64,000 nucleotides of DNA, taken from the NCBI GenBank assembly GCA_029531755.1, contig CM055977.1, positions 30,430,229-30,494,228 on the forward strand, in the 5' to 3' direction. Positions within the stretch are counted from its first letter, which is position 1. Each line of letters starts with the position of its first letter. Positions 11,801-58,100 of the stretch are shown here, piece by piece. The notes beneath the pieces are model-generated. The model ran no database searches, was not told the DNA's origin, and saw only the letters and a list, made by a program, of their open reading frames with translations. The stretch is from Holothuria leucospilota. Lineage: Eukaryota. Made by a program: the position numbers and the translations under genes.

Positions 11801-11842
11801 GTGAGGGTAATGTCAGGCCAAAATGTCAACGAAAAACAACAT

Positions 11843-12116
<274 letters not shown>

Positions 12117-14148: not shown

Positions 14149-14193
14149 TCCGTAGAATATGCCAAATTGCTTTGGAATTGCCCTTGTTTTTGG

Positions 14194-15152
14194 TTATTGC
14201 ATTATCTGATTATGAAAATAATTCCGTTTTGCATTCCTTAAAAGTCTGGTTACTTTATTCCTGGCCTGTCGATACATACTGGGCTCAGAAAATTTTGCCT
14301 TGTTTCTCTGTCTTATTGCCTCAGTAATTTCACTATTAAACCAGTCAGGTTGGAATCTTTTCCTGACTCGTTTTTCCTTGTTTGGAGCATGCTTACTCAA
14401 AACACCCATAAAAATACATTCCCATGCTTGTAAGACTTCATTTGGGTCATTTCCTTTGGGTGAGTCTGGCGAAATATTCAACTGCCAGTCTAAATCTTCG
14501 TTAAAATTACATATATCTATTTTATCAATATTTCTGTATTCAATTGATTTGTGTGCATTAGTCTTGATTTTCATGCTAGAATGCTTCCAAGTAAAGAAAA
14601 TTGGGAAGTGGTCACTAATCGTTATGTCGGAGACTGTTAAATTAACAACACGTCTCCCGTTAGTAGTATAAACGTGGTCTATTAACGTAGAAGTACATTC
14701 GGTGTTACGGGTTGGCAATTTGACTACTTGTGTTAATCCAAGAGACTCAATATCATGTAACCATTTCTTGTTTTCACCATTGAGCAGATTGAGGTTAAAA
14801 TCCCCAATGACAATAATATCTAAATTTGAGTTGCATGGGTTAGTCATCATTTCAAGGAATATATTTGACCATTCAGTTTTAGAGTCAGGCGGTCGATACA
14901 GTACGCACAAAAGAACATTTTTTAAATTACGTAGAGGAATTTCTATCCATAGGGCTTCAATATCATCTTTTCATAATCATTCCTTCTAACACAAGGTACA
15001 CTGCTTTTAACGTAAATGGCTACACCTCCTCCTTGCTTTCCCTTCCTGTCTCTACGAAATATATTATATCCGGGAATGTTTACCTCATAATCCATATAAG
15101 TCTCGTTTAAAAAAGTTTCATTAAGGCAAAAAAATATGGAAATCAGAGTCAT
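14194..15152 (-). CDS. LINE ORF2 segment: apurinic-like endonuclease domain (two frame pieces)
   Basis: DNase-I-like EEP motifs in the translations of 14943-15152 and 14194-14910. Confidence 0.7.
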
Positions 15153-16118
15153 TTTGATATAACAATGCCTGAAGTTGATCTAATTTGTAATAAAGACGAT
15201 TAATATTGAGAAAACCTATTTTTAGTTTATTTTCACATTCTGTTGTGTTTACAGCAAGCTCATTCCGCATAGAAATGTTACTTCAGTTCTTGGAGGGGCG
15301 GGGAGGTGAAAACCCCCATAACCCCTATGGCAATGTTGGAAGTCTCGAGCCCAGGCCTAGCCTCGAGACTTCCCTCGAGGCGGCCATTTTTGAGACCTTC
15401 ATCTCGTACCTCTGGCCTCTGATTTTTTCAGCCGAGGCCTCAATGAGGCCACTGAGCTGTTCAGTGATGCGTAGTAATTGCCCAACGAATAGTTTTTCAT
15501 GCAGTGCTAAATGTATAAGAGTGTTTAATCAGGGGGTTGCTATTTAGAAGGAGATCCATCGGAAACTTTAATTTGTGGTAATCTATTAGATCCACCTCAT
15601 CGTTTACATAGTTTCAATTCATGAGTCAGATTACACACCTCTTTTGTCTGATCCTTTTCAATTGATACGTGATACCCAAGTAAACCTTTTATACACCTGC
15701 TTATACCGTAGCCTATGAATAAGATAAGGAGCAACAATGCTTTGATCCGAAGGTCTTTACCGACAGACAAGTAAGAAACACTGTCTAATAAATCAAAACG
15801 ACTGCTAATTCCCTAAGGAGTCTAGAAAGACTAGCTTATAAGAAGGTCCGTTACACTGGCACAATGCGTAAATGACTGAAGAGAGGTGTGAGACTATAAT
15901 TTGCTTTAAGATTATATTACTTTCCGCAAACTTTCGCAATTTCCGAATGGTAAGTGCATGATCAAAATGTTACATAAAATTTAACTTACCTATCGTGATA
16001 AGCGATGCATCGCGTTGGAAGCTCTGCAAATTAATTTTGAAGGAAAGCGACTGGCAATGCTATAGCATATAGACAAAATTTGTTGACATTTCTTTTCAAC
16101 GTAGCAGACGACATGAAC

Positions 16119-19800: not shown

Positions 19801-20018
19801 ACATTTTCCCTTTGAGCTACATTAAGGACTAAGCCTTTGTCAAGTGGCGTAGTCACCAAAGACTGATTAGTTTTGAAACTAGTGGAGGCTAAATTTCAAT
19901 TCAGCTGGGAGATTGTTTCCTCTCTGGAATGAGCATATTAGGCCTTAAAGTGGAGAGAGATGAAAAGGGTGGTATCAGTTTGTCACAAAGACTAAAAACT
20001 TTGCCAAGTCCACTTACC

Positions 20019-20134
20019 AAAAAGAGTGTAATCTACATCCAACACAAGTAACTTCTTTCCAGGTCTTGGTTCATTCAATACTTCAATTTTGTATTCTTTC
20101 ACTCTCTTTTCTACTTTCTTCAGAAATTCTTCTC
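20019..20134 (-). CDS. UBLCP1: UBLCP1 coding exon 3 (…[39 protein letters not shown]|)
   Basis: Minus-strand translation aligns with human UBLCP1 [41 protein letters not shown]. Acceptor ttttaaatag| and donor |gtaagtgg are present, and the phase is consistent with exon 2. Confidence 0.8.
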
Positions 20135-21777
20135 TATTTAAAATGAAATAACAAAAATTCATTTCATTATCTGATTCATTTCAAATGATAGATCATCTTA
20201 ACAAAGTTTATTACATGCAATAATTTGGATATTCCAAACAAGTCTTCGAAATCTGGAACAATAGGTAACCAAAATAAGATATACACTTAAAGAGAAAAAT
20301 GCTGTGATGGTGGTTTCGCAAATTTTTATGGCTTTAAATTAAAAGAATACATACAGTTTAAAGGTCGTGTGACATGCCACCATAAAGGGCTGTTTCACTT
20401 GTCACTTAAAGAATTAAGTCCTCCAATCAAAGATCCGTTGGAATTATTTTAATATCTTTTACCGTTCTCAAAATATACGTCTTCAAAGTTTGATGGTTTC
20501 TGAAGAAACTAATTACCTATGCAAAAATAATTATGTGGAGTGTTGCACAGTGTTACAATTTCTTTTGTTAACCCTATATAAATTATCTCTTAATTACTGA
20601 TCATATAGATTACAGTTTGGTGAGTGATATCAATATTTTTCAAGGAAAAAATTTTAAGTGTTATAATAAACTCCTCAGGGAATAACAATGCTACCAGTGT
20701 CCTTGAAATTAAGGTTGAAAAAATAAAGGCTAACATGTGCCATATATGGTATGTCCCTCTTTCGATGTCACATATTTGCATATTTAGCTCATATTTATTC
20801 ATGATACAAGTGTGAAATGGAAATTTACCTGTAAAATGGTCAATATTTGATGGATTTTAATGGAAACTGTGGCTATTTTCTGGATTTTTAATGCTTTTTA
20901 CATCAAATATCCAACTATTTTATTTTCATGTCATACGACCTTCAAGCACAAAGAATGAGAACATATTTTTAATGCAAGAGAAAGCAGTTTTAAAGGAATT
21001 TACTCCTTACAAACAAGAGGGAACATTCTTGCTTCATGCAGAGACCTAGCACGTTTAATGCTCACTGGTTTTATTTACATCATGCACAGTGGCTTATCCA
21101 ACTTATGAGCAGAGTGCATGTGCAGCTTCTATAGCGATGGCATTTACACTGTAGGGCCTGCAGATTGGGTATGGGAGGTCAAGCTCTCTCAAAGTGTGAT
21201 GTAGTATTGATGGTGTGAAGCAATATGACCAATCATTAAATAAAAGATTCTTCGCTGACAGAGACCTGCAACCAGTGAACTACACAATTTTACTTTTGCC
21301 CTAAAAATTCGGGGGGGGGGGGGGTTGAAAGGGGCAAATGCCTCTTATGCCACCACCTGGATCAACCAGTGGCTGGGTAACTTTATTTTCAAGATATCAG
21401 ATTCTTTAAGAAAGAAATTCATTGTTTTGTAGCTCATGAATAATTGTTTCACCTTGACTTTTCCATTTTCAAATAATACACATTTAACTGTTGTAAATGT
21501 GTTATAAATACTTCCAAAAGGTAAAGCTATTGCAAGAGTTCATTGCTGGGACTGAATGGTTAAATAATGGTTAACTTTTATGAGTTGAGGAAATTCCAAA
21601 TTTATGTTGGCTGCACACATGGCAGTAAATGAACTTCAAGACCTACATACAACCAGTAAGAATACTTTTCACTTTGAGGAATGGGCTGTGGGGTGGGGTA
21701 TTAGGACCACAAAAGTTGGTATGAATGTCTTGAGACTCAGAGATATCCTAGATACTTGGAGAACTGGCATACTGTAC

Positions 21778-21955
21778 CTTTGATTTGTTTGTATTTCTGT
21801 TTCTTCAAAGTCAAAGTCATCTATAACCTCTCCTATGTCTGCTGGTTTCTCATTTGCTGCGGCAATTGTTTCTTCACATGTACCCATCATCATAATCTTG
21901 GTATTTGGTTTGATCTTTAACTCAGATAACTGCACATCATCAGCTGGAACTTTTC
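21778..21955 (-). CDS. UBLCP1: UBLCP1 coding exon 2 (G [28 protein letters not shown]...DDFDFEETEIQTNQ)
   Basis: Matches human [28 protein letters not shown]...DFDIEDEVVEVEN. Acceptor tttatgttttcag| and donor |gtacagt are present; the split Gly codon joins cleanly with exon 1. Confidence 0.8.
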
Positions 21956-22807
21956 CTGAAAACATAAAAATACCAAGATGCCAGACACAGCACAAGAATG
22001 GAAATCCTGCTTTAATTCCTTTACAATATTTAAATTAATTGTGTATTTCTTTTGCAGAAAGAGTGAAAGATACAGTTACAGTATTATCATGATTATAATC
22101 ATAATATCCCACCTAGCAAAGCCCTTTAAGTCAGCAATAGAACTTAAAAGCACTTTACAAACTTCTGTCTCATTCATTTGAAGTAAAGTGTATAAAATAC
22201 ACCTTCTATTCCAAAGAGTATTACGACACTTAAATAGAGTGTTCGGACACTTGCAGGAAGTAAAAGCCTTCTAAATTTTGCAAACTTTTTGAGCTTTGTT
22301 CACAAGTGTACCTCTTGACCGCCACCTTATGTACAGTAGAATCTGACTTATAAAATCAAAGCTGCTTATCCATCACCCTAAACATGCAGTAAACTGATTA
22401 ACTACATTTCCATTCACAATTGGTGACTGCACTTTAATTGACACAAATTCACACAATAGTTTGAAATATAAGGCACTCTGATTAGTCAATGATAACTTAT
22501 GCAGAACAATGAAATGTGATGTAATGTAGTCCATTGCATAGACAGTTCAACTGTGGAAACATTGTTAGGGAAACAAAGTAGGTATACAACAGTATATATT
22601 CAGCAGAATAGCATAAATGGGCAGTTACACTCACTAAAGGAAAGCTTTGTCTGGAAGGTGTAGTAGACAGATATTGTTTTAAATTGGAGTTCTAGAAATT
22701 GGAAGTAACTTTAGTTGGGAGAATTTTTGACTGCTGGGGATGAATTGGCCCTTAACAATCTGAACAAAACTTTTTTTCAAATCCCATCAGTATCAATGTG
22801 TACTTTC

Positions 22808-33970: not shown

Positions 33971-34319
33971 TTAAACTTTGGGGTAGCAGTATAGCCTAAC
34001 TTTAATACAGTGACAATTGTTCCTGACCTTGTATGGAAAGCCAGGAGTAGGCCTAATTATAGAAAAAAGCCATAAAATTACCAAAATGGGCCAGTAGACT
34101 GGATCAAAGGCAACTGTGTGAGGAACATGTAATGCCTAAGCTACAGTACAGAGTACTGTACAAGAGTACTGTACAAGAGTACGGCTACAGTCACACAATG
34201 CAATACAGCGTAGCTTATTGTATCATGTATGGTTGCCAACTGGACTGTAACACACTACACAGAACAGCCGGGACTGTTCGCCAGTAGGCTAAGGAAAGAA
34301 TAAAGATAATACAATTCAC

Positions 34320-34482
34320 CTTTCAGTTTTAATCCTAGCAGCTTCTGCCGTTCAGGTAGAACTCCCGTTTTCATTTTGATTACATCCTTCAAATCCTTGA
34401 CAGTATCTGTACCCAGAAGATCGGTAATTTCGTACTCTTGTCCGCTCCATTTTACAACAAGTTTTATCATGGACGCAGCCAT
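34320..34482 (-). CDS. UBLCP1: UBLCP1 coding exon 1 ([54 protein letters not shown]|G), ubiquitin-like domain; ATG at 34480-34482
   Basis: Strong match to human UBLCP1 [48 protein letters not shown]; donor AAAG|GTGAAT at 34314-34319; the ORF continues into the intron, which gives it away as an exon. Confidence 0.85.
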
Positions 34483-35075
34483 TTTAGATTCATTGCCAAG
34501 TGGTAAATAAAAGCGGTAATTTGTTCATAAATTTTGGCCTTACTTCATCAACTCTTATGAATATAAAATTAAGCGATAATTCAAAAAATACTTTGATGTT
34601 AATGATACTACAATATATCAATGGTAGTCCTCTAAAACGAGTTTACTATAAAATTTGCTGTCATTAACTGAACAAAGAAAAGTCGTCTATTATCCAGTGA
34701 ACATGAAAATACAAATTGATACTTCCCTTCTCAAGACAAAGTTGACATGCATGGTGCATACTGAACTGAGTTTTAATTGCTTCTCTTTCTGATCATGACG
34801 ACGATTTATTCTGGTTGTTAGCCTGTTTTAGAAGTACAGAAGTGTTGTATCGTCCAACTTTCATTGCAATGTCGGGGGATAAAGAGAAAGATCGCTATGC
34901 AGTAAGTATTTTTGGGCGTAGGCTCAGTTCCCCCACAGAGTACAAGGCTACGTAAGTAACGTATTGCTGGCTAATCCACAATCTAGTATTCTGTAACTGT
35001 GTTTAATACAAGTTAGGCTTGTCATTTAAGTTAGTGAGTTGGCCTAAGTACGAGTACGATATGTATATGTAGCAG

Positions 35076-39431: not shown

Positions 39432-41105
39432 TCATTGCAAATCACGAAAGTTATTAAAAGATAATAGATTCTTTTTACGGTGTCTACAGCTGCTTGCCAG
39501 TTCATTCCTATTATTCAAGGAAGACATATGTGGTCTGTAGATGATAAAATATTTCTCGGTTATACAAAGGTTGCACCTTTTACTAGATGTTGAATATGGT
39601 TTACCATATGCAAGGATTCTCCATTTGATCGAGTACGGTACGTTACTGTCTTTTAATGACCAGATATATCGGCTCAGAGTAGTAACGTTCCTCTGGTTTT
39701 CATTTCTGAAACTGCTGCTGTGACCGTTGAATCTTGTTTTGAAGGAATTTTCAGTTAATCCGACGTATGTTTCCACCTTAAGGTTATCATGTCTTGTTAC
39801 TAAGGCTTGATATATTACACCAGATGCTAGGCAGTTACCTTCTAGAGGGCATGGGTTGTCTTTCCGGCAGTTACAGCTTGGAGTATTTCGTGCACGATCT
39901 GCAGTTTTCTCAGCTCTTAAGATCGATTTATTGTGTGAAGTGATGATTTGATGCACATTTGGCATACAACTGTAACTTATTTTGACGGTATTTGGGTTCA
40001 GTATTTTACATAGCTGATGTCCTGGGGGAAAACATTTCTCGAGCAAATTCAAGAACTTCTTACCGACGTTGGTAGCAACGTTTGCACTGTATGGCGGGTT
40101 AAACCATGTTATGTTGCGTTTCCTTTTACGTTTTTCGTTGTTGTTGTTACGGGATGGTGGCTCATATCTCAGTTGGTGCTGATACCCGCTCTTTGTGAGT
40201 GCTTCCTGATATGGCGGTGCCGCTGCGTCAAATACTGCATCATTAGATGATATGGTGGAGAGGCGTCTGTTGACGGCTTTTGGGATATTCTTAATGATAG
40301 ATGGTGGGTGATTGCTTTCCCTATGTACATATAAAGGTGTATTGTTCTGTTTCATGTAAGGCTTGTAGGTGCCGGTTCTCAGGTCTAGCGTCACATCAAG
40401 AAAATCAACAGTTTTCTTATTAGCCTCGATCGTGATCTTCAGAATGTTGCTCGTGAAGACCTTGCATATATCTTTCTTGATAATTTCCGTTTGTCTTGGA
40501 GATTTGCTGCAGAGTGCTAGACCATCGTCTCTATATAGTCCTACATTGATGTCTAAATGCTGAAGTTGAGACAGGATATATAGTCCTATTAGCTCACAAG
40601 TTTCAGCTCCATCATAGCTTCCCATAGTGACATCGAAATTGGAGTTTTCGTGTTTGCACCATGGTAATTCATTATCGTATAATAGGGACCTTTTGGCGTG
40701 GAGTATGATGGTCTTATCTTGTTCGGAGATATTAACATACTCGGAGGCAAAATCGAGAGCTTTTAGAAGAAGTTTTTCCGTGATAGATGGGTAAAACTCG
40801 CAAATATCAAAACAGATGAAAGAATTTCCGGTCACATCGTCAATTTGATTGTACCATTCGATCACCTCGTTAGTATTCCTCCACTGGTTGAGGTTAGTTG
40901 AACTTACAATTTTGGAGTTGATTCTGTCGATGATTTGCTTGCTTATGATTCCAATTTCAGATTTCCTGGGATTGATTAATCTACACGAGGGTTTGTTTAC
41001 GAAGTTTGGTTTATGGTCTTTCAGTGTCACAAAAGCTTGGGCTTTGGCGGTGGTATCAATGCGGTCATCTAGTTCTAGGTCAGTTGCTATTTTCTTGTCT
41101 TTCAT
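39432..41105 (-). CDS. PLE ORF: reverse transcriptase fused to C-terminal GIY-YIG endonuclease (possibly N-terminally truncated)
   Basis: Longest ORF in the window (557 aa); domain order RT then GIY-YIG is diagnostic of endonuclease-positive Penelope-like elements. Confidence 0.8.
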   Translation of the reverse strand: MKDKKIATDLELDDRIDTTAKAQAFVTLKDHKPNFVNKPSCRLINPRKSEIGIISKQIIDRINSKIVSSTNLNQWRNTNEVIEWYNQIDDVTGNSFICFDICEFYPSITEKLLLKALDFASEYVNISEQDKTIILHAKRSLLYDNELPWCKHENSNFDVTMGSYDGAETCELIGLYILSQLQHLDINVGLYRDDGLALCSKSPRQTEIIKKDICKVFTSNILKITIEANKKTVDFLDVTLDLRTGTYKPYMKQNNTPLYVHRESNHPPSIIKNIPKAVNRRLSTISSNDAVFDAAAPPYQEALTKSGYQHQLRYEPPSRNNNNEKRKRKRNITWFNPPYSANVATNVGKKFLNLLEKCFPPGHQLCKILNPNTVKISYSCMPNVHQIITSHNKSILRAEKTADRARNTPSCNCRKDNPCPLEGNCLASGVIYQALVTRHDNLKVETYVGLTENSFKTRFNGHSSSFRNENQRNVTTLSRYIWSLKDSNVPYSIKWRILAYGKPYSTSSKRCNLCITEKYFIIYRPHMSSLNNRNELASSCRHRKKNLLSFNNFRDLQ

Positions 41106-41407
41106 GTTGATGTGATTCTCAGTAGCTTTCGGTGCTTTTTTGTAGGATTTAGTGATATTGTCTGCAAGGAGTTTGTTGTACTGATCGGGTACAACAACGC
41201 GACGCCGTTGCTCTGTAACCTACATATATTTTCATATAAGACGCTTTGCTTTTATTATACTACCGCTATTTTGCGCGTATACTGTTTGCATGCGACGCCG
41301 ATAATAATCTGTTGAAAACATAAAAGACGCTTTGCTCTTGTTGATGACGCATCCAGGCGCGCTTTCAGATTTTCATATTGTTATTATTATTGTGTAACGG
41401 TTAGGAT

Positions 41408-41477: not shown

Positions 41478-41495
41478 TAGGAGTTTACTTATTAT

Positions 41496-41499
41496 TTGG

Positions 41500-41542
<43 letters not shown>

Positions 41543-41598
41543 TATATACATTAATGTATACATATATATATATGTATATATATATGTATATATATATG

Positions 41599-41646
<48 letters not shown>

Positions 41647-41650
41647 TAAT
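41496..41650. repeat. (TA)n / (TATATG)n microsatellite
   Basis: Long atatatat run with interspersed gtatatatat; abuts the PLE right end. Confidence 0.9.
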
Positions 41651-41989
41651 TTGTGATTTAGGCGAAAAACCGTATGAAAAAACGCGACTGTTGGAAGAAC
41701 TCGACCCTTAGGCGAAAAAATCGTTTCGCCTTAACGTTTTACACACTGTTTTATATAGGAATGCGTAACTCTATACGCAAGTCCAATTTACCACATAATG
41801 TTTATGCAATTACTTAGCTGCACACCAACTTACGTGCATGTATCCGTTAACACTAAGGACTTACGGGCCATTGAAATAACGTGCATATATATCTCAGAAC
41901 CAAAAGGGGAAATATAATCTTATGTATTGTATTGTTTTTTTTCTTCACCGGTTGTATTGGTGGCGGTATACCGATTTCGCCTAACAGGT

Positions 41990-41999
41990 CGATCTAGCG

Positions 42000-42074
<75 letters not shown>

Positions 42075-42180
42075 AAATATATATATATATATACATATAA
42101 TCTATGTATATATAGATATATATATATATATCTATATCTATGTGTATATATATATACATATATATATATATATAGATATA
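41990..42180. repeat. (TA)n microsatellite
   Basis: tatatatata… over ~190 bp; the Y/I-rich ORFs across it are artefacts. Confidence 0.9.
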
Positions 42181-42415
42181 TAACGAGAATAAGAAAGTTC
42201 AACGTACCCAAACAATGTACTCCCAACAAAAGGATCCAAATAGGATGCCAGGGTGTTTCTCTCATGATAATATAGAAAGTATAAGCAAAAAAAATAGCAA
42301 GAAACACAACTTTTGCTGCTCCACTATAATAAGTATAATTCAATATGTTTCAGTCATTCGACCTTCCTCAGTTGAACAAATACAGTACACTGGTGATAAA
42401 CACACACCAGAGGGC

Positions 42416-42790
42416 CTACGGGGCAAAATTGATACGCTTTTTGGAATTAAGTTCATTTCTTTTGTTAAGGCCATAGGGGAAAATAGTACGCAATTGGGCA
42501 GTCCAGTAGATTTCATGGCTGAGGAATTTCTTGTTGGTTTCTATGGTATCGGTGATGCGTTCAATCGGGAGAAAAGCTAAGTCAGTTAATTCATGGGGAG
42601 TGTGATTGAAATGGGTGGCTACAACGCAAGTTTTCTTATTAGTAAGCATGTGGGATTTGTGATTACGAAATCTAACTTTAAATTCAGTAGAGGTAGAACC
42701 AATATACTTGACATTACATTTCAGACAAGTTAACAGATAAATAACATTCTTAGTAGTACAAGTGATGTACTGCTTAAAGTGGCCATGACA
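42416..42790 (-). mobile_element. Orphan GIY-YIG endonuclease domain fragment (second, diverged PLE-type EN; no adjacent RT)
   Basis: Minus translation KNVIYLLTCLKCNVKYIGSTSTEFKVRFRNHKSH…KFLSHEIYWTAQLRTIFPYGLNKRNE has the GIY…YIG…R…H…E…N motif order; family differs from the 39432-41105 ORF. Confidence 0.55.
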
Positions 42791-44721
42791 CGTAAATTGG
42801 AGTAACGGGAGACTAATTTAGGCTAAAGTACACAAAAAGCTCTTTCTAAAACTGTTTTCATCACCCTTACAGCCTTGAGCATTAAAAAGAAATTAATGTT
42901 TCAAAAAATTGCACCAAAAAATAGACTGTTGAAAATGAGATTTCAAGCCAACACAATAATGACGTCATTTTAGGAACACCATCCTCCGCATACTGAACCT
43001 GGCGTACAGCATAGCCTATACATAAGTAAGAGATGGTAATGATTGTAATTCGTGGCATGTCTTGAATTTGAACTTTTATTCTGTCTGTTTGGAGAGTGGT
43101 GTCGGTCTGTTATATTTTGGGGCTGCAATAGGCTATTACTAATAATTACAAAAACTCTTGATTCATAACCGAAAAACGAAAAAACTCGGCAGTATACTGT
43201 TCGGTTTGGTCTGCGTACAGTGAGTGGACTGGCAGCAGCCAGTGAATAATACTGTGCACACGCAATCATAGCCTAGGCTACTAGTTCCACGATTTCCACT
43301 GACACTTGCACGAAAGTAACCAAAAGTTCATATTTTGACTGCCTACATAAAACTTTCCAAGCTAAAGTCCCTTTCAATTACTCCAAATGCTTCTAGTGCT
43401 CAAATTGTTGTGGTGTTGTACTTTTACCTCACCTAACACTGTCACAAATCGATACGGTCCTGTGCGCCGTAACGAATTACTCACCCCATCTGCCCCACTG
43501 ACGTCTTGTTCAGCATCGCCTTCGCCTTTCTGATTTCAAATCCAAGAAAACTCACTTTACCGACAGTCCACTGACAATTCCTGTCCGATCAGGGAGTTGC
43601 CATTAGAGGACAACTCCCTGGCTCAGATCCGCCATTCCAAAGAAAGTATTAAATTTGATTTCACATGGTACCTACTACGAAACAGTGCTGGTGATACATT
43701 GTGTAGTAACAGGTATGTTGTGTACGGTACCCATGGAAGTAGTACTTCCATGCTGTACCTATGCTGTTGTGTTGTGAATGTTTGTACATGCAGCTACTCA
43801 TCATGACACCAAGACAAAAAACCTGCATGAAATGCATTTAATTGACTGAAACAAGTGGTAAGCACGAGAAAAGGGATAACAATTCCAAAATTTACAACCT
43901 TTCACGCAGGTTTTACATTGTATTGACCTTGGTAACCAGTACAATGGAATGCAAACACTGTATCAAATGTCCGAAGGATACCACACCAAACAACGATCAG
44001 TTCCTAAAGTGACATCACATGACGTAACAAGATTTTGAGAATTTTTGGAAAGACTAACTTTTCAGGGCTGGAAGAGGGTGTATTTTTTCTCAATTTTCGA
44101 GCGGAAAAACAAGTTGTAAATAAACAGAATGGTTGATTTTCGTTGTAGGAAACGTATTCCTAAGGATACAAAAGGGTTTAAACCGTTAATTTACACGTGG
44201 CATAGCCACTTTAATGTAGTATGAGCGACCTGTGGCGGCACAGTAGAAAATACGAGAAGTAGATGAGTAATTTTGACAGAGGTCACATTTGTTGTTACAA
44301 GTAAAAAAACCGGGGGAGGTAAGATCAGGAATGGGGCACTTATTCTTAAATTTTGAGGGCGCCACTAATTCTTTCAAATTTTTAGTTCTTCTGAGGCTTT
44401 GTTGCATGATATTTGTTGAAAGTCCCAACTTTTTGCTGAACCTCAGAATGTTTGTACATACCAATCTAGTAGCCCTTGAACAGCACTTTGTCTTTCTGCT
44501 TCCAAACCTTCATCTCAGAACTTGTAATTAGTTTACAAATTTTTACATTTACCTTTTTATGGTACTGTATCAGGGGTCCAGGTATCACTCATATTAAACA
44601 TTACCATTTTTTTTTTTTATCAACCTTAGTCTAAAACTAACTTTCAGGCATAGGTTTTTTAGTACCTACTGTGATTACTGTCATACTCATACTTTGACCA
44701 GCCTGTTTGTAAAGCTGTGAT

Positions 44722-45054: not shown

Positions 45055-45742
45055 CATGACTCCCGCATTTGCTTTTGTCTAGACATTTTAGGATTTCCCC
45101 AACGTTTTTACTTTTTAGTTTTACCGTTTTTATCTACAGTAGATGACACTGCATAACACACTAGTGTTGATGTGTCGTTAAGTCCCATCTAACTAACTAA
45201 CTAGATGTTGTAGGAACTGACACTTCCAAAAGGTGTTGAAGAGAAGGAATGCTGGAAATTTATGCATGAATCAGTTGCAACTATGGTGGGTGGTACTGAG
45301 TAGGACTGTCCTGGACTGCTCTCAAATGCCTGGGACTCACTCACATTAATCCTGATACTGCCATGTACTAACTTCATTACCAACTGTAGTTAAATGTGAT
45401 GTTTTTGTGGTACTGTATTGTCCAAGTTTTGTTCACTTAGAATGTCCACATTGGACCAACAAATCAACAGTATACCCCACTCTTTTCAACAATAAGATGT
45501 TTGACTAGCTATGCTCTATTAATACTCTTTACCTGGTGCCCACCAAATTGGTCCAGCTGCAACCCTGGTGTGAATTTATTTTTAGGTTTGTGCTGTCATT
45601 ACATTTTTTTTCTGTTTTTTTTTCTTTATCTGGTATAAAAATATAGACAATTTGTTAAAGAATATTCTTAAATTTGTATGTCTTTAAAATAGCCAATGAA
45701 CTTTCTCTTACCTTTCAGGCACAAGCAAGGACTGGAAAGCTT

Positions 45743-45771
45743 ATGTCTGTCATAAGAGTGGTAGCTGTCAG
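45743..45771 (+). CDS. EXOC4: EXOC4 (Sec8) first coding exon: MSVIRVVAV|S (exon begins at 45719 after acceptor cctttcag)
   Basis: In-frame ATG at 45743; MSVIRVVAVS aligns to human EXOC4 LLISVIRTLSTS; donor CAG|GTAATT at 45772; the phase joins the next exon to give Ser. Confidence 0.55.
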
Positions 45772-49215: not shown

Positions 49216-49304
49216 TGACAATGATGAGCAACGCAATGTTGAAAAGTCAAAGCTTGAGAGTGCTTTCCAAGAGTGTGATGAAAGACTGGATAAATTAATA
49301 TCAG
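49216..49304 (+). CDS. EXOC4: EXOC4 coding exon 2 (DNDEQRNVEKSKLESAFQECDERLDKLIS)
   Basis: Aligns to human EXOC4 [29 protein letters not shown]; acceptor ttatttttcag| and donor CAG|GTAAAT are present. Confidence 0.8.
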
Positions 49305-49849: not shown

Positions 49850-50051
49850 AAAATTACGAGATTTTGACCAAAACAATCCAAGCATACAGTAGCATATCTG
49901 GAAGAATCAAAACATCACGTGAACGAATCAAACAAGTCAAGGGAGACCTCAACTCCTGTAAAGAACTTTTACATTGCCGACGTGATGAGTTGAAGAAGCT
50001 GTGGTTAGAAGGAATAGAACAGAAGCAAGTGCTTTCACTTCTAGACCAAAT
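49850..50051 (+). CDS. EXOC4: EXOC4 coding exon 3 (ENYEILTKTIQAYSSISGRIKTSRERIKQVKGDLNSCKELLHCRRDELKKLWLEGIEQKQVLSLLDQ)
   Basis: Aligns to human [67 protein letters not shown]; acceptor ttttcctag| and donor AT|GTAAGA are present; phases are consistent. Confidence 0.85.
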
Positions 50052-50808: not shown

Positions 50809-50974
50809 AGAAGAAGTCAAAGGTGCTCCTCAAAAAATGAACCAATACATCACAGAGAAGAGATACCTCCATGCAACTGAGCTTTTGACCAAGACAGTGG
50901 CTCACCTGGAAGGTGACCTGAAGGGAGTGGAGGCTTTGACAGAGATTGGTTTGGAGATGAAAAGTAGGAAAGAG
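50809..50974 (+). CDS. EXOC4: EXOC4 coding exon 4 (I EEVKGAPQKMNQYITEKRYLHATELLTKTVAHLEGDLKGVEALTEIGLEMKSRKE)
   Basis: Aligns to human [55 protein letters not shown]; acceptor tataccatag| and donor GAG|GTAGGT are present. Confidence 0.85.
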
Positions 50975-51532
50975 GTAGGTGTTACAAGTCCGCTTGCATG
51001 ACAGGAAAACACTGTGAGGTTGTTGGGGTGGGGGGGGGGGGGGATCCATTGGAGGTTTTGGTGGTTTGAAGCGGGACACATGCCCTCTCTTTTCTTAAAA
51101 TGTAAGATGCCCCGGTTTGAAAATGAAAGATATAGGCCTTTAAGAGTGCCCTTCAGATGTTGTGCTTCCACTTTTTGACATGTCTACGCACACAGTCTAG
51201 TTATGATTATTTTTTACATATAAGAGGTTTCAGTCTACCCAGGGATCTGTTAGGTCTACCCGTGTCAAGCTTGATAGAAGGACTATTTATTTCAGGTCTC
51301 GATCGACATATATTAATGTTAAGTCAACGCTAGTCGTTACTTTGATCGATAATTCATGATCTCTTTATTCCAGCATTCACTGTAATATTTAAAGAAAAGA
51401 ATTGTACCTAACCTGACGAAAAGATTATTAAATCAGCCAGGTAGGATTTTGTAACGTGATTTAGTTACACTTTTCAAGTAGGTTTTTTCAAGTGACTCAT
51501 TTGAAAGTTTTAACTTTCTACACCCCTTTCAG

Positions 51533-51741
51533 ATATTTGTACCACGAATTAACAAAGTACACCCCTGCATCAGACAACAGCATGTTTTGCATCAGCGATG
51601 TATCAGACGGGAAACTTTGCTTAAAAGACAAATACAAGATACATCTATATATCAGTACTACACCGTGCGGATGTGCCTCTTTCTTCTCTTCCCACGCAAG
51701 ACACAATACAACAGCAAAACTCTCTACCAGAAAGGAACGAT
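51533..51741 (+). CDS. ADAR-family deaminase-domain exon (…RYLYHELTKY…KIHLYISTTPCGCASFFSSHARH…STRKER), zinc-ligand motif II
   Basis: Aligns to ADAR2 RFLYTQLELY…[20 protein letters not shown]. Acceptor cccctttcag| is present and the donor T|GTAAAA gives a phase consistent with the next exon. An upstream in-frame stop at 51462 with no ATG shows this is an internal exon. Confidence 0.6.
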
Positions 51742-52788
51742 GTAAAACGAATTTGCTAATAAAATTCCTATTTTTGTTTATTTTTGTAAGATTTCCTCAG
51801 CTGTGTCAAAAATCTTCATTTTTCATCCGACCGATTAATACTTTAAAATGTAATCTTACTTTCAAGTAGTGTCTTCTAATGTTGGTTTAGAATTTTAACT
51901 TGTTGAAATGGTTAAGACTGGAACTGTCGATACTAGGACTGTCATTGCTGAAATGGTAAAGATAAAATTAATTTAATTGACCACTCACCTTGCTGTATCT
52001 GACGCCATATCTCTAAATGTAGACATGGGAAAAGTGAAATTGAATTATTATTATTCTGTGAAACAGTAGAATAAAGGCTTTTCAATAAAGAGATAACTAG
52101 TAGAACAAAAAGGAAATGAAATAAAGAATCATATAAGTTCAGCTATTGCAGCTTAAACATGTATAACTTGGGTAATGTTAGCTCCTCGTTATCCGTATAC
52201 CGCCAGTGAATGACCATATCGAAACTATTATGATATTTGCTTTGAACTGATCACAAAATATTAACAAAATGACGTCTTTATTCCCTCAAATTTAAATTGA
52301 GATTGGTCAAACTAAAATATATTTCTCAATAGAAAGAAATATATCATTTGTCTTCCTTTTGTAAAAACAATGTGTGATATGCATATAAAAGTGTTTAGCT
52401 ATTTCCTGTTGAAAAAATAAGCATGTCTTACGGATATTAATGATTCTATACTGAATATTATTTAGCGTTTGTAAGCAAGTTACAGATTCGACATGCCAGA
52501 GAGTAACATTAATAGGAGTTGATTATATCTGTTGATTAATTGTTACGTCTGAACATTACAAAGCATTGGAAAAAGGATATTGAAGCATTAATATCATATA
52601 TTAAAGAATTTCAGTATCTATATATACCACTAGAGCTCTCTTTGAAGTTGTCGTTTAGATTTGACAACAAAAATAGAGTGTATGCAGGGAGTTTCAAATA
52701 ACAATTCCCTGGTGTATGTGACCATGCTTTTTATATTCACGTTATCGCGTACTAGCATTGTTGATTTTCTCTCGTTTTGTGTTCGCAG

Positions 52789-52983
52789 CCGATGAGTTTC
52801 TCATGACCAATTCTGAAATATCACAGATGCATCAAAGTTGGGACTATGTCACAGAGCAAGGAGAGTTGAACCTTAAAACAATGACATGTAGCGATAAGGT
52901 TTGTCAATGGAACGTCGTCGGAGTTCAAGGAGCTCTTTTAAGTCACTTCCTTGATCCAATCTACCTAACCTCAATAATTATAG
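52789..52983 (+). CDS. ADAR-family deaminase-domain exon ([65 protein letters not shown]), zinc-ligand motif III
   Basis: Aligns to ADAR2 [50 protein letters not shown]; acceptor gtgttcgcag| and donor TAG|GTAATG are present. Confidence 0.8.
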
Positions 52984-54217
52984 GTAATGTTTGTCCCCAT
53001 TCAGTTATAGTTACCCTTTAGTGGTTAGAGTTCACTGTCTTTGTTAATCAAATTGGAAGAGTAATTGAATACCCACATTAGAGGGTTGAATGCACACAAA
53101 AACTATTTAACTAAGAACAATGATGTGAAAAAAACCAAGAATAAAACGGAAAATGGCAAAACACGACAATAGTTTAGCATAAAGTACGATACGAATCATT
53201 CTAACGTTTGAAATATAGGCCATTTTCTTCACGAATATAATAAGGAGTATCCTTCATTTGTGATGGCGAATAAATGACAACCGTATCCTACCAATTCCGG
53301 TGATAACTGTTTTCTTCAAACGCATTGGACATCTTAAACTTTAGGGGCTGTTTAACTTCAATCAACCTACTTCTACTACAAAAAATATTGCACATATGTT
53401 GATGCATGTAAAAGGTCGCGTTCAAGATATTTTGAGACAAACCAAAGGAAAGTGACATCTTATTAACGGTTGGGGGGGGGGGGGGCTAGAAGCTAGTCGA
53501 CCCTCCAGAATATGGCACCATAAGGAGGGAAACAGAAATGTAAGGCGCTAAAGAGTAAAACGTGGAAAAGAAATTAGGAATGCACACCTAAGCAAAACAG
53601 AAAAAAAGTATTCAGATTTTCGCTTAAAAAATACTCGAATAATTGTAAACTAATTTAATGGACCAAAGAAAATATTTTTGAAAAGAAAATTTGGAGGAAT
53701 TAATTGTTCACTGTCGAAATTGTAGTGAACAGTCGTCAGTTCCTTAACGTTCAAGATACTTGTAAACAAAGTCAGTTATATTGTTTAAGTAAAAATTAAT
53801 ATCATCAACTGATATCAAACCCAGCGGAGTATTACCTTCTTTCACCAAAGCCAAGGTTTCACTGTTTGATCTTGCATCCGATTCCAAAACTGGGAACTAT
53901 TTTGGTACTAAAATTGCACATCTTGGTGTTTGACCTGAAGATATTAGTACAATAGAAGCAATCAGATAGTAAGATTATAAAAGTCTACAGACCAGAAAAA
54001 TGTCACGAAAACGTTCATTTCGAGTAACTTATTGTCCACGAGTGGAATTTAGTCCAGCTAAAAGTAGAGGAATCGAACAAAAAAGATAAAAACATTAACT
54101 TTAGAAACGTAGCTTAAACATGCATGCCCCGAATATTAAGAAAGAGATTACGGAATAAAATTTGTCAGCACTGAAAGTTTTCTCTCAACAATCAGTTTGA
54201 ATGCTGTTCATTCAAAG

Positions 54218-54434
54218 GGTCCAATTTTATGGAAGATCGAGTTCAGCTTGCCCTAAATCGTCGTCTGGAGTCCTTCAGTAGAGAGATTTACAACTTGCCG
54301 GAACCATTTCGTGTTTATCTTCCCAAGATAACTGGCAAGACGAGTCCCCAAGTCATCGAGGGGAATAAAACTAGTCTTAACTGGTTTGAAGAATTGGGTT
54401 GCCAAGTTGAAGTCAACAATGGATTTTTAGGAAG
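54218..54434 (+). CDS. ADAR-family deaminase-domain exon (GSNFMEDRVQLALNRRLESFSREIYNLPEPFRVYLPKITGKTSPQVIEGNKTSLNWFEELGCQVEVNNGFLG)
   Basis: Aligns to ADAR2 GSLYHGDHLSRAMYQRISNIEDLPPLYTLNKPLLSGISNAEARQPGKAPNFSVNWTVGDSAIEVINATTG; acceptor ttcaaag| and donor GAAG|GTAGAG are present. Confidence 0.75.
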
Positions 54435-54943
54435 GTAGAGTAAATTTCAGATATCATTGTTACCATAAATAATCATATGATTAATGTATGATTAGCATCC
54501 TTATTCATACTACAAGGTCATTGCTTCATAGATTAAAGAAAATATTCTGGAACAAGTTTGTCTATCCGTGTAATGCCTTGAGCCACATAAGAGATTTTTT
54601 ACTCCCTCAAAAAAACTATTACGTCACATAGAAGTTACTTCTCCAAAGTAACGAATACAAGTCCTTAGAAACAAGTACTCGCTTGCAATTGCCATAGTCT
54701 TTAAACCCCTCCCCCTTATGAAAGTACTAGAAATAAGTGATATGTTAGAGTTAACTTTTACAAATTTATAGGTGTAAAATTTGCCTTTCACCGACGTGAC
54801 ATTAAAGGTTGTAGAAAAAATTTTCGGTAAATATCATTAGAAATGTCAAACTTTGGCAGCAAAACAAGTTAAGACTTTTAAAGTAAACTTCTCCGCACTA
54901 ATAATATTTCTAACAAGAAATATATTTCCACCTTTTGTTTTAG

Positions 54944-55193
54944 AACTTTTTTCGAGGAAACGTCGTCTCGTTTATGCAAAAAGGAACTTTTCACAGCTTT
55001 TTCAGAAGTATGTAATTTAGGTTTCTTCCACTGGGGCAGGCTTTTAGAAGATAATCCAACGTATCGGGAACTTAAAGAGAATGCTTCAAGTTATAAAGAG
55101 GCGAAGACTGCATTAAGTAATTATTTTGAAAGTTCAGGCTTCGGACATTGGATTCGTAAGCCCAGTGAGGTCGATACTTTTCGTTTGGGATAG
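54944..55193 (+). CDS. ADAR-family terminal coding exon (…TSSRLCKKELFTAFSEVCNLGF…YKEAKTALSNYFESSGFGHWIRKPSEVDTFRLG*), stop TAG 55191-55193
   Basis: Aligns to the ADAR1/2 C-terminus RASRLCKHALYCRWMRV…[34 protein letters not shown]; acceptor ccttttgttttag| is present; the phase gives AGA with exon 3. Confidence 0.75.
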
Positions 55194-58100
55194 ACAATAC
55201 TAGCGCAGGACGAAAGTTGAGTGCGACGACGGTGTGAAAAAGTTCGAAGGAGTCGATTATTTTGGAATAGCGACACCTTCATTTACGCGGACTGTGATGT
55301 TGTTGTTATTGCATATGCACACTGTTCCTTGTTCACAAGCGCCATCGTACAAACTAATAGGGTACAACTTGCTGTTGAAAAGTGTTGCATCAATTCAAGG
55401 GTAACCCCAGGTGGGAGTAGGGGCATGACATCCGTCGGAGAAACTTTTTAGTCCTCGGGGAACGTTTTGGTACGATCAAATGTATTTTCGACTGCCCGTC
55501 GCCCCAAGGCTTTACTTCGTTTTCGCTTTTCAAATCTTTGGTGTTTCATTTCTTTTAAATTTGAGATAAGTTTACTGTGTACAACACTATTGCCAAAGGT
55601 CAGATTTCAAATGTGAAAATTATCTGCACAGCTTCTTTTCTACTACAGTATGCCTCACCAAAAGGGTAAGATTAACATGTACTTAGTGCAAATTACAATG
55701 CTAAGACTGAATATAAAAAGAGAACGGCTTAAACTTTTTAGGCCTAAACAAGTGTACAGAATTGTGCAGGGCGACAACCTGAGTGTAACGTCAGTGTTTT
55801 TATATATCAAGGATAATTTAAATTATATCCGTGTTGTTGGCACTCCAGACTGCTTGAGACTGCTATTATGAGGGTTGAATACAATCAACCGGTTGTCAGG
55901 GAAACAACCCAAACCACAGTATTTCTAGTGAGAGTTCATCAATTAAAGTACTTACAAAGCACAGATAGCGTACCTACCTGTAGCTCTAAGACGGGCTTTA
56001 TACTGCTAATCAGCAAGACAAACCAGCTGCAGGCTGTAGCCATAATGATCGATGGGAGTAAAAACACATCATCTGACGTTCTGAACACGCTTACACACAT
56101 GGTGTTCCTCATGGCGTTTACATGATAGCTAACGAAGTAAAGGTAGCTTGCTTATACGCTAAGTTTCCGTTATGCATTTCAAAACTACAAACTCGTCTTG
56201 TTCGACGTCTTTTGTGGTAAATTTTCAACGGTGGGCAAAAATTCCCGCTCGGTAAAAACGTTAAAAATTTGTTAAACTAACATATTGCCATACGTTTATG
56301 GACCCTACTGATCTAAATTTTCCCTTTTGCGGTTTTGATTTTGCCCCACACGGTCTAGGTAAAAGGACGGTGAAATGCTTTGAGGGTAGCCTAAAGGCGG
56401 CCCTCATGTGCACAGAAAACCCTCGAAGATAGATTTTTTGTGCAGCCTCGTTCGAGGGTTTCTCCCGGACTGCTTAGGTGCATGCATTCCGTGGTCCAAA
56501 TCCTGCAAGAAAAGTAATTTTGCCTACTCTTAAAAGTATGTATACAATCCATTTTTTAATAGGAAGATTCTTACTTGCAGGGAACAGCTAAGAATATAGA
56601 TATGTTTTTAGACAGTGTTTTTACGTATGTATGGTCATGATATGTTGTTTTTTAACATAAAAGTTTTGTCATCTGCGCTATCAATGTTTTATAGCTGATG
56701 AAACCAGGTATCGCACCCGTCGATGAGGCATTGTTAAGTTATAGTTCATCTTTGGTAAAGGCCTATATGCTATTGTTTAAAAATTACTCTCTTATTTTTT
56801 CAAATCTTCACTGTAAGTAACGAGTTTAGCATTTCAGCACTTAGTGTGCCCCACTGAATAAACATGTTTACACTGTTTTCGTATTTAGCGATTAACACCT
56901 CATATTAAGCTACTAAATGAGTTTTTAAAGCGAACGTTTAGAAATATGAGGATTTAGGAGGTGAATATGTTTGGCTGGGGCAAAAAAAAAAAGGGTTCAA
57001 ATTCTAAACGTTGTATAAGAGTGTTGCGTATTAGTTTCAGTGATGGAAGTATATAATTGTTTTGATATTACATGACCTTGCAGTGAAGATGAAATTGTTA
57101 GCTAAGGTAATGATTGCATCTTTAAAAAGATCGCAAGAAGTGCAATATCATTTCTGTTGTCCAAACTAATGTAAATCTACGGAGTCGGACGAGACACCCG
57201 CTTTTTTAAGAGAGCGCTAAAGTCATATTGCCGAGTCTTAGAATGTCATTTGATTCTTGACACGGTATTTAGTTGATTGCAGAATTTAAACAACAGTGCA
57301 TCATTCCTGCTCCAGAAGACCTCAGTTTTACCTCTTTGGGTGCTTTAAGATCTGCGGTATCATTAAGTGAAGTAAAACCATGTGACTCGGTGTACTATAA
57401 GAAGTGCTTTGTTGTCCCTTACTTGGCGATCTTCGTTTTGAGAATAAAAATACATTGAAAGGTATCTTGGTTGCAGTTCTTTGAGTAAATAAGAAGTAGG
57501 TTTATTAACCTCTCAAACATAGTCACACCACACATCGCTGGGTTGTCGTCAGCCTTTAATTTCACTCAGGCGAATTACAAACAATTGTAGTTGTTCTCTA
57601 CACCTGAATAGATAATTATAACGCTTAAGAAAGCATATAGCGTCTTACCAAACTTTAAAAGAAAAATTAACTAATGTTTTTATCGCAAATTGTATCATTC
57701 TATTAACCTTTTCTGTAAATATTAAAGGATGCAAGTTTTCATTTTAGAAGTTTTCTGGTTGGTAGGGAAGAGGTCTGATGGCGAGAGGCTTCTGCTTGCG
57801 TGTGTGTGTGCATTTGATGGTGCGTACCATTTTAATATTCAGATTGATGACGTTATATTAATTTTAGATAAATGTATTCAAATTCAGTAAATATGTAATA
57901 TGTATATATATATATAAATATATATATATGGTACTGTGTTACTGTAAATGGTACTATAAATGGTACTATATTCAAGTAAATGTAACGGTTTCAATTACAG
58001 ATCAATAGTTAGCCATGCGTTAGAGGCTAGTCGGATAGCTTATGTTTTTTATACATGTAAGACAGAGACAAATGATATTATCACTTCAGAAAAGGTTGAT

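Follow-up and report, generated by a model that had tools for sequence, protein, structure and literature searches.

A probable 5′-truncated duplicate of an ADAR-type deaminase gene in an EXOC4 intron of Holothuria leucospilota

Exons that encode part of an ADAR-type deaminase domain lie directly downstream of EXOC4 exons in Holothuria leucospilota, which raises the question of where this fragment came from and whether it can encode an editing enzyme. We analyzed the locus in a 64-kb window (i.e., the whole stretch of DNA under study); a first-pass annotation of this window had proposed either an ADAR-like gene nested in an EXOC4 intron with distant 5′ exons, or a 5′-truncated duplicate or fusion partner. 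Our analysis indicates that the unit is probably an intron-retaining, 5′-truncated duplicate of a Holothuria-specific ADAR-type gene, located in an EXOC4 intron and most likely an inactive relic.

Structure of the ADAR-like unit and of the EXOC4 intron

The ADAR-like unit consists of four canonically spliced exons on the + strand, which together encode a product of 289 aa. Exon 1′ (51533–51741; 100% match to KAJ8025976.1) encodes YLYHEL...PCGCA...TRKER; its first base closes a codon split 2+1, and its start corresponds to human ADAR2 F406 (alignment to structure 1ZY7, chain residue 108). The PCGCA motif (51663–51677) in this exon contains the zinc-ligand cysteine equivalent to C451. Exon 2′ (52789–52983) holds TCSDK (52884–52898), which includes the equivalents of the zinc-ligand cysteine C516 and the IP6-binding K519; the R522 equivalent is Gln. 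Exon 3′ (54218–54434) encodes the divergent middle of the deaminase domain, detectable only against Holothuria paralogues, and exon 4′ (54944–55193) encodes the C-terminus, in which the equivalents of the IP6-binding residues K629, Y658, K662, Y668, K672, W687, and K690 are all kept, and ends with a TAG stop codon (55191–55193). Acceptors are ...cccctttcag/A, ...gttcgcag/C, ...ttcaaag/G, and ...tgttttag/A for exons 1′ to 4′, and donors are GAT/gtaaaa, TAG/gtaatg, and AAG/gtagag for exons 1′ to 3′. Each of the six internal splice sites is canonical, the intron phases agree across the unit (split codons T/CC for Ser, G/GG for Gly, and AG/A for Arg), and the ORF is open across 289 codons; the joined product is 100% identical to KAJ8025976.1 and aligns without a break to KAJ8050857.1 over every junction. 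The first-pass description of four well-spliced exons that carry PCG, TCSDK, and an ADAR C-terminus with a stop is thus borne out by splice sites and phases, and so are its reading of PCGCA and of a weak GTAAAA donor for exon 1′. The earliest in-frame ATG (51582–51584) is the start of the model already in GenBank (KAJ8025976.1, 273 aa), which is named "Double-stranded RNA-specific editase 1", starts at this internal Met, and covers the 273-aa product only, with no 5′ exons. The first poly(A)-like hexamer is located 750 nt beyond the stop codon.

Upstream of this unit, we identified four EXOC4 coding exons on the + strand, as previously claimed, in an order collinear with a contig from a related holothurian. 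These exons are located at 45719–45771 (AQARTGKLMSVIRVVAV; equivalent to human aa ~17–33; 88% nt identity to positions 1342–1400 of the related contig), 49216–49304 (human aa ~34–62), 49850–50051 (human aa ~63–131; ending in phase 2), and 50809–50974 (human aa 132–185; ending in phase 0). The exon at 45719–45771 has its own acceptor; therefore, at least one more EXOC4 5′ exon is located upstream. No annotated H. leucospilota EXOC4 protein with these exons was found in the protein database. Exon 1′ begins, in sense orientation, 558 bp past the exon at 50809–50974. The interval between them (50975–51532, + strand) contains the in-frame stop reported earlier at 51462 (51462–51464) and ends with a good polypyrimidine tract and AG; the upstream boundary of the inserted segment must fall within it.

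The related holothurian contig carries the same four EXOC4 exons and the next one (4503–4696), and the junction between exons 4 and 5 is backed by yeast Sec8 (PDB 5YFP), which aligns across it without interruption. Because the homologous intron in this contig is only 767 bp long and contains no ADAR-like sequence, the ADAR-like unit represents a derived insertion. Probes for EXOC4 exon 5 (the related holothurian exon and a human sequence) produced chance matches only and no homologue between 51 and 64 kb of the window; the H. leucospilota intron is therefore at least 13 kb long, and the next EXOC4 exon, if present, must lie beyond the window. One candidate for exon 5, "TLFLKLIDEL" at 58.78 kb, was rejected since it is AT-rich, is followed immediately by a stop, and lacks an acceptor. 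We infer nesting in the EXOC4 intron from host exons on the upstream side only.

The retained part of the deaminase domain and the Holothuria paralogues

The 289-aa product matches Pfam A_deamin (PF02137) at positions 37–329 of the 329-position profile (E = 4.6e-61; 207.5 bits, with a cut-off of 27 bits), which is far above chance. Both zinc-ligand cysteines are present, and PCG is followed by Cys in place of the Asp of the PCGD motif, which is >90% conserved. In the alignment to ADAR2 (1ZY7), with IP6 contacts and catalytic positions taken from Table 1 of PMC10278661, the product has the ADAR2 residue at 10 of the 12 critical positions that fall in the retained part; the IP6 contacts encoded by exons 2′ and 4′ are kept except for R522, and the S531 equivalent is Ala, as in several ADARs. 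The product starts downstream of the equivalents of H394, E396, R400, and R401. It lacks ~96 N-terminal residues, which hold the third zinc ligand and the catalytic glutamate (HAE; H394 and E396 in ADAR2) as well as the IP6-binding R400 and R401, and it keeps about three quarters of the deaminase domain. Without equivalents of H394 and E396, the window copy is predicted to be unable to act alone as an adenosine deaminase. An AlphaFold model of the 273-aa product (pLDDT 83.8) aligned to the ADAR2 and ADAR1 deaminase domains with a TM-score of 0.84 when normalized to the query and ~0.6 when normalized to the target; by this model, the product is an incomplete deaminase domain.

The missing N-terminal part was searched for in the whole window. 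Neither tblastn with KAJ8050857.1 (small word size, both strands) nor an N-terminal profile HMM built from 141 ADAR-family proteins and run against all six frames (best E = 7.4) matched it, and 12 full-length proteins of the ADAR1 and ADAR2 types, used as tblastn queries, matched the window at exons 1′, 2′, and 4′ only, with no match to a dsRBD or Z-alpha domain. The HAE and dsRBD exons that the first-pass annotation could not find in 50975–51532 are hence missing from the entire 64 kb on both strands, and the tblastn search for the dsRBD and HAE region that it had proposed, run here across the 64-kb window, found neither. A decayed HAE exon just upstream of exon 1′ was also considered; the read-through "THLKVL", as compared to "SHAEVI", consists of the polypyrimidine tract and AG, with two to three chance identities, and was rejected.

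A paralogue located on another chromosome, KAJ8050857.1 (383 aa), is 87% identical to the window product and has the whole deaminase domain, including 96 N-terminal residues with DSHAEVIARR. Its annotated model shows PF02137 only and no dsRBD, although this gene model could be incomplete, and it reads PCGCA as well. A further partial paralogue is annotated beside it. Because KAJ8050857.1 shows both characters, the lack of a dsRBD and the PCGCA motif are probably family traits, and only the loss of ~96 N-terminal residues is probably specific to the window copy. Two suggestions of the first-pass annotation are revised by this comparison: absence of dsRBDs is probably not part of the truncation, since the annotated full-length paralogue has none either, and PCGCA is probably not an oddity of the window copy or a lesion. 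An exhaustive HMMER search against 1.84 billion representatives retrieved nothing with >50% identity beyond the H. leucospilota cluster; the match at 50% (P0186), considered as a possible holothurian family member, comes from a moth and contains ADAR2 segments repeated internally. The annotated copies, one intact and two partial, document a small expansion, specific to Holothuria, of an ADAR-type gene that apparently encodes a deaminase domain only.

Origin of the copy and alternative explanations

A full-length paralogue elsewhere, absence of the N-terminal 96 residues, and an empty intron in the related holothurian favor, among the earlier proposals, a 5′-truncated duplicate in an EXOC4 intron. 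The window unit would be an unprocessed, DNA-level copy of an apparently deaminase-domain-only gene, with KAJ8050857.1 as its intact relative, that probably arose by partial segmental duplication and lodged in sense orientation in the intron following the EXOC4 exon that ends at 50974. The hallmarks of a processed (retro-) pseudogene were not found, as three introns are kept with canonical sites and no direct repeats flank the unit. Transposon-mediated capture was rejected as well; the unit is not bordered by terminal repeats, whether inverted or direct, and the segment at 50–57.8 kb occurs only once in the window. The copy is most likely non-functional or, at best, a non-catalytic relic, and its sole predictable effect on the host would be a decoy acceptor near an exon in EXOC4 pre-mRNA; use of this acceptor from the adjacent exon would lead to a frameshift and premature end.

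Relative-rate counts for the window copy and KAJ8050857.1 were 1 vs. 5 with the partial paralogue next to KAJ8050857.1 as outgroup, and 4 vs. 5, 10 vs. 2, and 6 vs. 6 with distant outgroups. These counts show no excess change in the window copy, unlike what is expected for a long-dead pseudogene beside a constrained parent. The intact ORF weakly suggests constraint or youth; it does not prove selection, as neutral simulation gave a chance of 0.09–0.56 of staying stop-free and is thus compatible with neutrality.

These observations bear on whether the truncated copy is expressed as a functional, non-catalytic protein, which we consider unlikely. Such a protein, translated from the ATG at 51582 (273 aa) or from a transcript with a novel 5′ exon, would serve as an RNA- or IP6-binding or dimerizing partner, or as an inhibitor of active ADARs. 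The intact ORF with canonical splice sites, change not accelerated relative to KAJ8050857.1, and critical residues largely as in ADAR2 are consistent with this role, and there is precedent in the inactive editing modulators proposed for ADAR3, ADADs, and squid ADAR/D-like (PMC10278661). However, the ~96 missing residues belong to the deaminase core and include two IP6-binding arginines, which makes a stable fold of the remainder doubtful, the first poly(A)-like hexamer is 750 nt away from the stop, and intactness also fits neutrality. It appears improbable, too, that the ADAR-like exons represent alternative 3′ exons of EXOC4, even though the two sets of exons are on the same strand and only 558 bp apart, and exon 1′ has a good polypyrimidine/AG acceptor. 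A splice from the phase 2 donor at 50051 to the phase 2 acceptor at 51533, skipping 50809–50974, would be in frame, and its conceptual product, a chimera of the N-terminal ~131 aa of EXOC4 and the deaminase fragment, is open to the normal stop. A phase fit of this kind has a 1-in-3 chance expectation, however; joining the adjacent exon (50974, phase 0) to 51533 breaks the reading frame, with a stop after 72 codons, and would yield a frameshifted EXOC4 isoform that ends early, the exon 1′ donor (gtaaaa) is weak, and no protein linking Sec8 N-terminal sequence and A_deamin was found in the databases searched. With regard to the earlier idea of a fusion partner, an in-frame fusion would be possible only from the 50051 donor and not from the adjacent exon.

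Little probability attaches to a complete gene whose HAE-bearing 5′ exons are located outside the window, >51 kb upstream or elsewhere; the first intron of this gene would extend over UBLCP1 as well as the 5′ part of EXOC4, and interleaved genes on the same strand are rare. Long first introns do occur in ADAR genes (e.g., ~75 kb in squid ADAR1; PMC10278661), and absence from 64 kb does not equal absence from the chromosome; however, EXOC4 exons are collinear and uninterrupted in the related species, making the unit a derived insert in one intron, co-arriving 5′ exons would have to sit in the 558 bp after 50974, where they were not found, and the annotators found no 5′ exons either. An assembly artefact, in which the 3′ part of an ADAR-like gene ended up beside EXOC4 through a collapsed or chimeric join, seems very improbable: while the region is rich in repeats, with homopolymer G runs at 51030–51046 and 53470–53486, and EXOC4 exon 5 was not seen downstream (51–64 kb), the product is 13% divergent from the other copy, indicating a distinct locus instead of a misplaced duplicate, the EXOC4 side is confirmed by an independent contig, and no break in composition was found. 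A 5′-truncated duplicate thus remains our preferred explanation. In a more far-reaching scenario, which we regard as a long shot, Holothuria has young, lineage-specific, dsRBD-less ADAR-derived deaminases (with PCGC and an altered flipping loop) whose full-length member may be active with a new substrate preference; the copy in the EXOC4 intron would have been kept as a catalytically dead derivative with a role in regulating editing or the function of the exocyst, and it would be expressed by itself or, through the 50051 donor, as a chimera in frame with the EXOC4 N-terminus.

Significance and comparison with known systems

The main value of these findings is in correct annotation. KAJ8025976.1 lacks the catalytic His and Glu as well as a dsRBD; surveys of RNA editing in echinoderms should therefore treat it neither as an ADAR2 orthologue nor as an editing enzyme. 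The locus also documents insertion of a gene fragment into a conserved host intron, a "dated" example of ordinary genome evolution with modest significance; if transcribed, the fragment would be a natural example of a headless ADAR module or would give EXOC4 a decoy or chimeric 3′ end.

The placement of the deaminase fragment relative to ADAR and ADAT1, which the first-pass annotation had raised, was addressed with NJ trees of ADAR and ADAT1/TAD1 sequences; the searches yielded no ADAD sequences. In 92% of bootstraps, the Holothuria family joins the ADARs and is separated from plant TAD1 and from the Lottia and Aphanomyces ADAT1 sequences; it forms a clade on a long branch within the ADAR group yet outside the ADAR1 and ADAR2 clades. 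The nearest non-holothurian relatives are single-dsRBD ADAR-like proteins from gastropods (Gigantopelta and Patella; 36–37% identity), which form a weak sister grouping with the Holothuria family (58% bootstrap) that may reflect long-branch attraction. Unlike the Holothuria family, these gastropod proteins have one dsRBD, PCGD, and a GEGxIP loop; HAE is present. Their single-dsRBD type corresponds to the "ADAD-like" architecture of Grice and Degnan 2015 (PMC4323055).

In both sequence (E ~1e-36 to 1e-37) and fold (TMq 0.79–0.85), the best matches are human ADAR2 (PDB 1ZY7) and ADAR1 (PDB 9B83). With them, the window copy shares the zinc cysteines in PCG and (S/T)CSDK, the QxWDxV...TMSCSDK block, most IP6-binding residues of the retained part, and the W-x-x-K-P C-terminus. 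It differs from both in lacking the HAE-bearing N-terminal quarter, in having PCGCA for PCGD, a base-flipping loop with SDE for GEG, and Gln for R522, and in that no dsRBD or Z-alpha domain is present in the window or in the annotated full-length paralogue. This paralogue resembles the tRNA A37 deaminase ADAT1/Tad1p in being deaminase-domain-only, with 31–33% identity to plant TAD1; in contrast to ADAT1, the Holothuria family falls inside the ADAR group and has an ADAR-type QSWDYV...TMTCSDK block, and the window copy lacks the HAE that ADAT1 has. A structure considered as a natural deaminase-only precedent, PDB 9DP5, was rejected since it represents a deaminase-domain construct of Hydra ADAR.

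Like vertebrate ADAR3, ADAD1/2, and squid ADAR/D-like, the window copy would encode an A_deamin-derived product that is predicted to be unable to deaminate, and inactive ADAR-family proteins can modulate active ADARs (PMC10278661). While those proteins have a full-length domain with point substitutions and dsRBDs, the window copy is missing an entire stretch at the N-terminus and carries no RNA-binding domain. Truncation is the sole ground for pseudogene status, because, unlike in unprocessed partial-duplicate pseudogenes in host introns, the retained part shows no disabling mutation and no measurable rate acceleration. The copy resembles such pseudogenes in having kept its introns, in missing one end, in its location in an unrelated host gene, and in its absence from the corresponding intron of a relative.

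Deaminase exons and their product

Four plus-strand exons encoding part of an ADAR-type deaminase domain were re-derived from this sequence of the sea cucumber Holothuria leucospilota at 51533–51741, 52789–52983, 54218–54434, and 54944–55193 (exons 1′ to 4′). Exon 1′ contains PCGCA (51663–51677), exon 2′ contains TCSDK (52884–52898), and exon 4′ ends in the stop codon TAG (55191–55193). AG is present at every acceptor and GT at every donor, the exon 1′ donor (GAT|gtaaaa) being weak; the exon phases are compatible (split codons T|CC, G|GG, and AG|A), and alignment to a paralogous protein crosses all junctions without a break. Pfam A_deamin matched the 289-aa conceptual product (E = 4.6e-61) over profile positions 37–329 of 329 only. 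Re-derivation, Pfam, and paralogue alignment thus confirm the four well-spliced exons with PCG, TCSDK, and C-terminal stop described by the first-pass annotation, which was also right about PCGCA, the weak GTAAAA donor, and an in-frame stop upstream of exon 1′ (51462–51464). The retained ORF is intact, and the spliced product is 100% identical to GenBank KAJ8025976.1 (273 aa; 49.26-Mb chromosome), named “Double-stranded RNA-specific editase 1”; the nearest poly(A)-like hexamer 3′ of the stop is 750 nt away. Because this name overstates the coding capacity of the locus, the finding is useful for annotation; the event itself is of a biologically ordinary kind. Homopolymer G runs of ~14–17 nt upstream of exon 1′ (51030–51046) and in the second intron (53470–53486) are potential assembly or sequencing trouble spots.

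The HAE and dsRBD exons, previously reported missing upstream, are absent from the whole window. Tblastn (word size 2) with the full-length paralogue KAJ8050857.1 found the four exons and nothing else in the window; a profile HMM covering 81 columns at the N-terminus (GTG...DSHAE region), derived from 141 ADAR-family proteins, reached a best E of 7.4 against the six-frame open segments; and 12 full-length ADAR1-/ADAR2-type proteins matched the window at exons 1′, 2′, and 4′ only, with no dsRBD or Z-alpha sequence found. A THLKVL string just upstream of 51533, considered as an HAE remnant for its likeness to SHAEVI, was rejected, as it represents the polypyrimidine tract and AG of an ordinary acceptor.

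The EXOC4 locus

Directly upstream on the same strand, as the first-pass annotation had it, four EXOC4 (Sec8) coding exons were located at 45719–45771, 49216–49304, 49850–50051, and 50809–50974; a human EXOC4 sequence served as probe only. The same exons occur in the same order, with 74–88% nucleotide identity, on L001, a 4.9-kb Logan contig from a related holothurian (SRR23999931). A following EXOC4 exon at 4503–4696 of L001 is authentic, since the spliced L001 exons align continuously to yeast Sec8 (PDB 5YFP) across the junction. The L001 intron after the equivalent of the 50974-ending exon is 767 bp long with no ADAR-like sequence found in it, and no homologue of the 4503–4696 exon was found in the 13 kb after 50974 in the window, which indicates, at the level of sequence comparison, that the ADAR-like unit is a derived insertion into an EXOC4 intron. 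Retroposition is excluded since introns are retained; a partial segmental duplication at the DNA level would be the simplest origin. Within the window, neither repeats nor inverted termini nor other copies were found to flank the unit. The window’s EXOC4 N-terminal exons were found in no annotated H. leucospilota protein in the protein database; annotation may have split the EXOC4 gene model, or lost it, where the ADAR-like unit sits.

UBLCP1 (ubiquitin-like domain-containing CTD phosphatase 1; minus-strand exons at 19995–20180, 21672–22034, and 34318–34485; PDB 3SHQ, E = 1.3e-10) lies head-to-head with EXOC4. About 11 kb separate its 34.3-kb exon from the first visible EXOC4 exon, versus <1 kb in L001, which marks a strong expansion of this locus in H. 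leucospilota. Minus-strand LINE-type retrotransposon ORFs (12366–15180) include RVT_1 (E = 1.5e-24) and endonuclease/exonuclease/phosphatase domains at 13.2–15.0 kb, with a second set of LINE-type RT-like open frames at 5000–6900 (minus strand). A 595-aa open frame without a Pfam match (39435–41219) and an adjoining GIY-YIG domain ORF (42419–42817; E = 2.3e-5), both on the minus strand, may together represent a Penelope-like element. Repeats include a G-rich inverted pair flanking the LINE at 12–15 kb (8372–8801 vs 16546–16119; ~430 bp, 89% identity), a 126-bp repeat (9875–10000 vs 31591–31467; 95% identity), a long microsatellite of 12-nt period translating as (LFIY)n (11800–12120), and TA/TATG-rich arrays (41480–42200 and 57850–57930).

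Holothuria paralogues and status of the probably truncated copy

The same genome encodes KAJ8050857.1 (P0002; 383 aa, 87% identical to the window copy), which holds a complete deaminase domain including DSHAEVIARR, matches PF02137 only, has no dsRBD, and also reads PCGCA. Another partial model, KAJ8050856.1 (P0003; 201 aa, 71% identical), has the adjoining accession, and both are on one 103.9-Mb chromosome. PCGD is conserved in >90% of 59 family members. P0002 shares both the lack of dsRBDs and the D-to-C change after PCG, which therefore seem to characterise a small lineage-specific family, and loss of the first ~96 residues appears to be the sole peculiarity of the window copy; the truncation proposed earlier thus holds for these residues, and not for the dsRBDs or PCGCA. 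An exhaustive HMMER scan against 1.84 billion representatives turned up no further protein with >50% identity, the next-best matches being ADAR1-like proteins of crinoids, cnidarians, and a scorpion (~40–44%). The three Holothuria sequences grouped with 100% support, on a long branch, in neighbour-joining trees. The phylogeny proposed earlier, run from P0002 with ADAR and ADAT1/TAD1 sequences, separated this clade from ADAT1/TAD1 and placed it within the ADAR group in 92% of bootstraps. The clade belonged to neither the ADAR1 nor the ADAR2 clade, and its link to single-dsRBD ADAR-like proteins of gastropods was weak (58%). Of mild interest is this dsRBD-less PCGC ADAR-type family specific to Holothuria, whose intact member lies outside the window. 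A 1286-aa “editase domain” model from the moth Phthorimaea operculella (KAI5640413.1) contains ~ten tandem repeats of an exon-sized ADAR2 segment ([31 protein letters not shown]); a local amplification of the exon, or an artefact of assembly or annotation, is the probable cause.

Among the three alternatives offered by the first-pass annotation, the 5′-truncated duplicate is the one we favour: the unit is probably an unprocessed copy, predicted to be unable to deaminate and most likely a relic. Lineage-specific substitutions in the window copy and P0002 numbered 1 vs 5 with P0003 as outgroup, and 4 vs 5, 10 vs 2, and 6 vs 6 with distant outgroups, showing that the window copy is not accelerated relative to P0002; this and the intact ORF would fit a maintained non-catalytic product, which we nevertheless consider unlikely. 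The ORF remained stop-free in 9–56% of neutral substitution simulations, according to how the 13% divergence was apportioned, and its intactness is therefore not decisive.

Slightly less likely still is use of the deaminase exons as alternative EXOC4 3′ exons, the fusion suggested earlier. The EXOC4 exon with its end at 50051 stops in phase 2, and a conceptual 50051^51533 splice would join the EXOC4 N-terminus in frame to a headless deaminase; however, such agreement is expected one-third of the time by chance, and the adjacent exon, with its phase-0 end at 50974, does not supply the two bases that 51533 requires from upstream. Conceptual 50974^51533 splicing gives a frameshift and a stop after 72 codons, at the start of exon 2′, probably a target of nonsense-mediated decay; the in-frame splice, as read from the sequence, is a possibility only. 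A complete gene with distant 5′ exons, the remaining earlier alternative, is improbable: if the unit is a derived insertion, co-inserted 5′ exons would be confined to the 558 bp that separate 50974 from 51533, which contain none. The emptiness of this interval, together with the derived insertion, is the strongest argument against distant exons. An assembly artefact is the least probable reading, and very improbable.

Retained residues and predicted structure

Alignment to human ADAR2 (PDB 1ZY7) places the start of the product at chain residue 108 (F406). Among the functional residues listed for ADAR2 (Table 1, PMC10278661), the window copy has no equivalents of H394 (zinc ligand), E396 (proton shuttle), or R400 and R401 (IP6-binding). 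AlphaFold2 modelled the annotated 273-aa product confidently (pLDDT 83.8, pTM 0.84), and superposition on ADAR2/ADAR1 deaminase domains gave a TM of ~0.84 when query-normalised and ~0.6 when target-normalised; the model thus depicts an incomplete deaminase domain. The equivalents of C451, C516, K519, K629, Y658, K662, Y668, K672, W687, and K690 of human ADAR2 are kept, R522 is replaced by Gln, and S531 by Ala, which is also found in several ADARs. In the base-flipping loop of the window copy, SDE takes the place of GEG.
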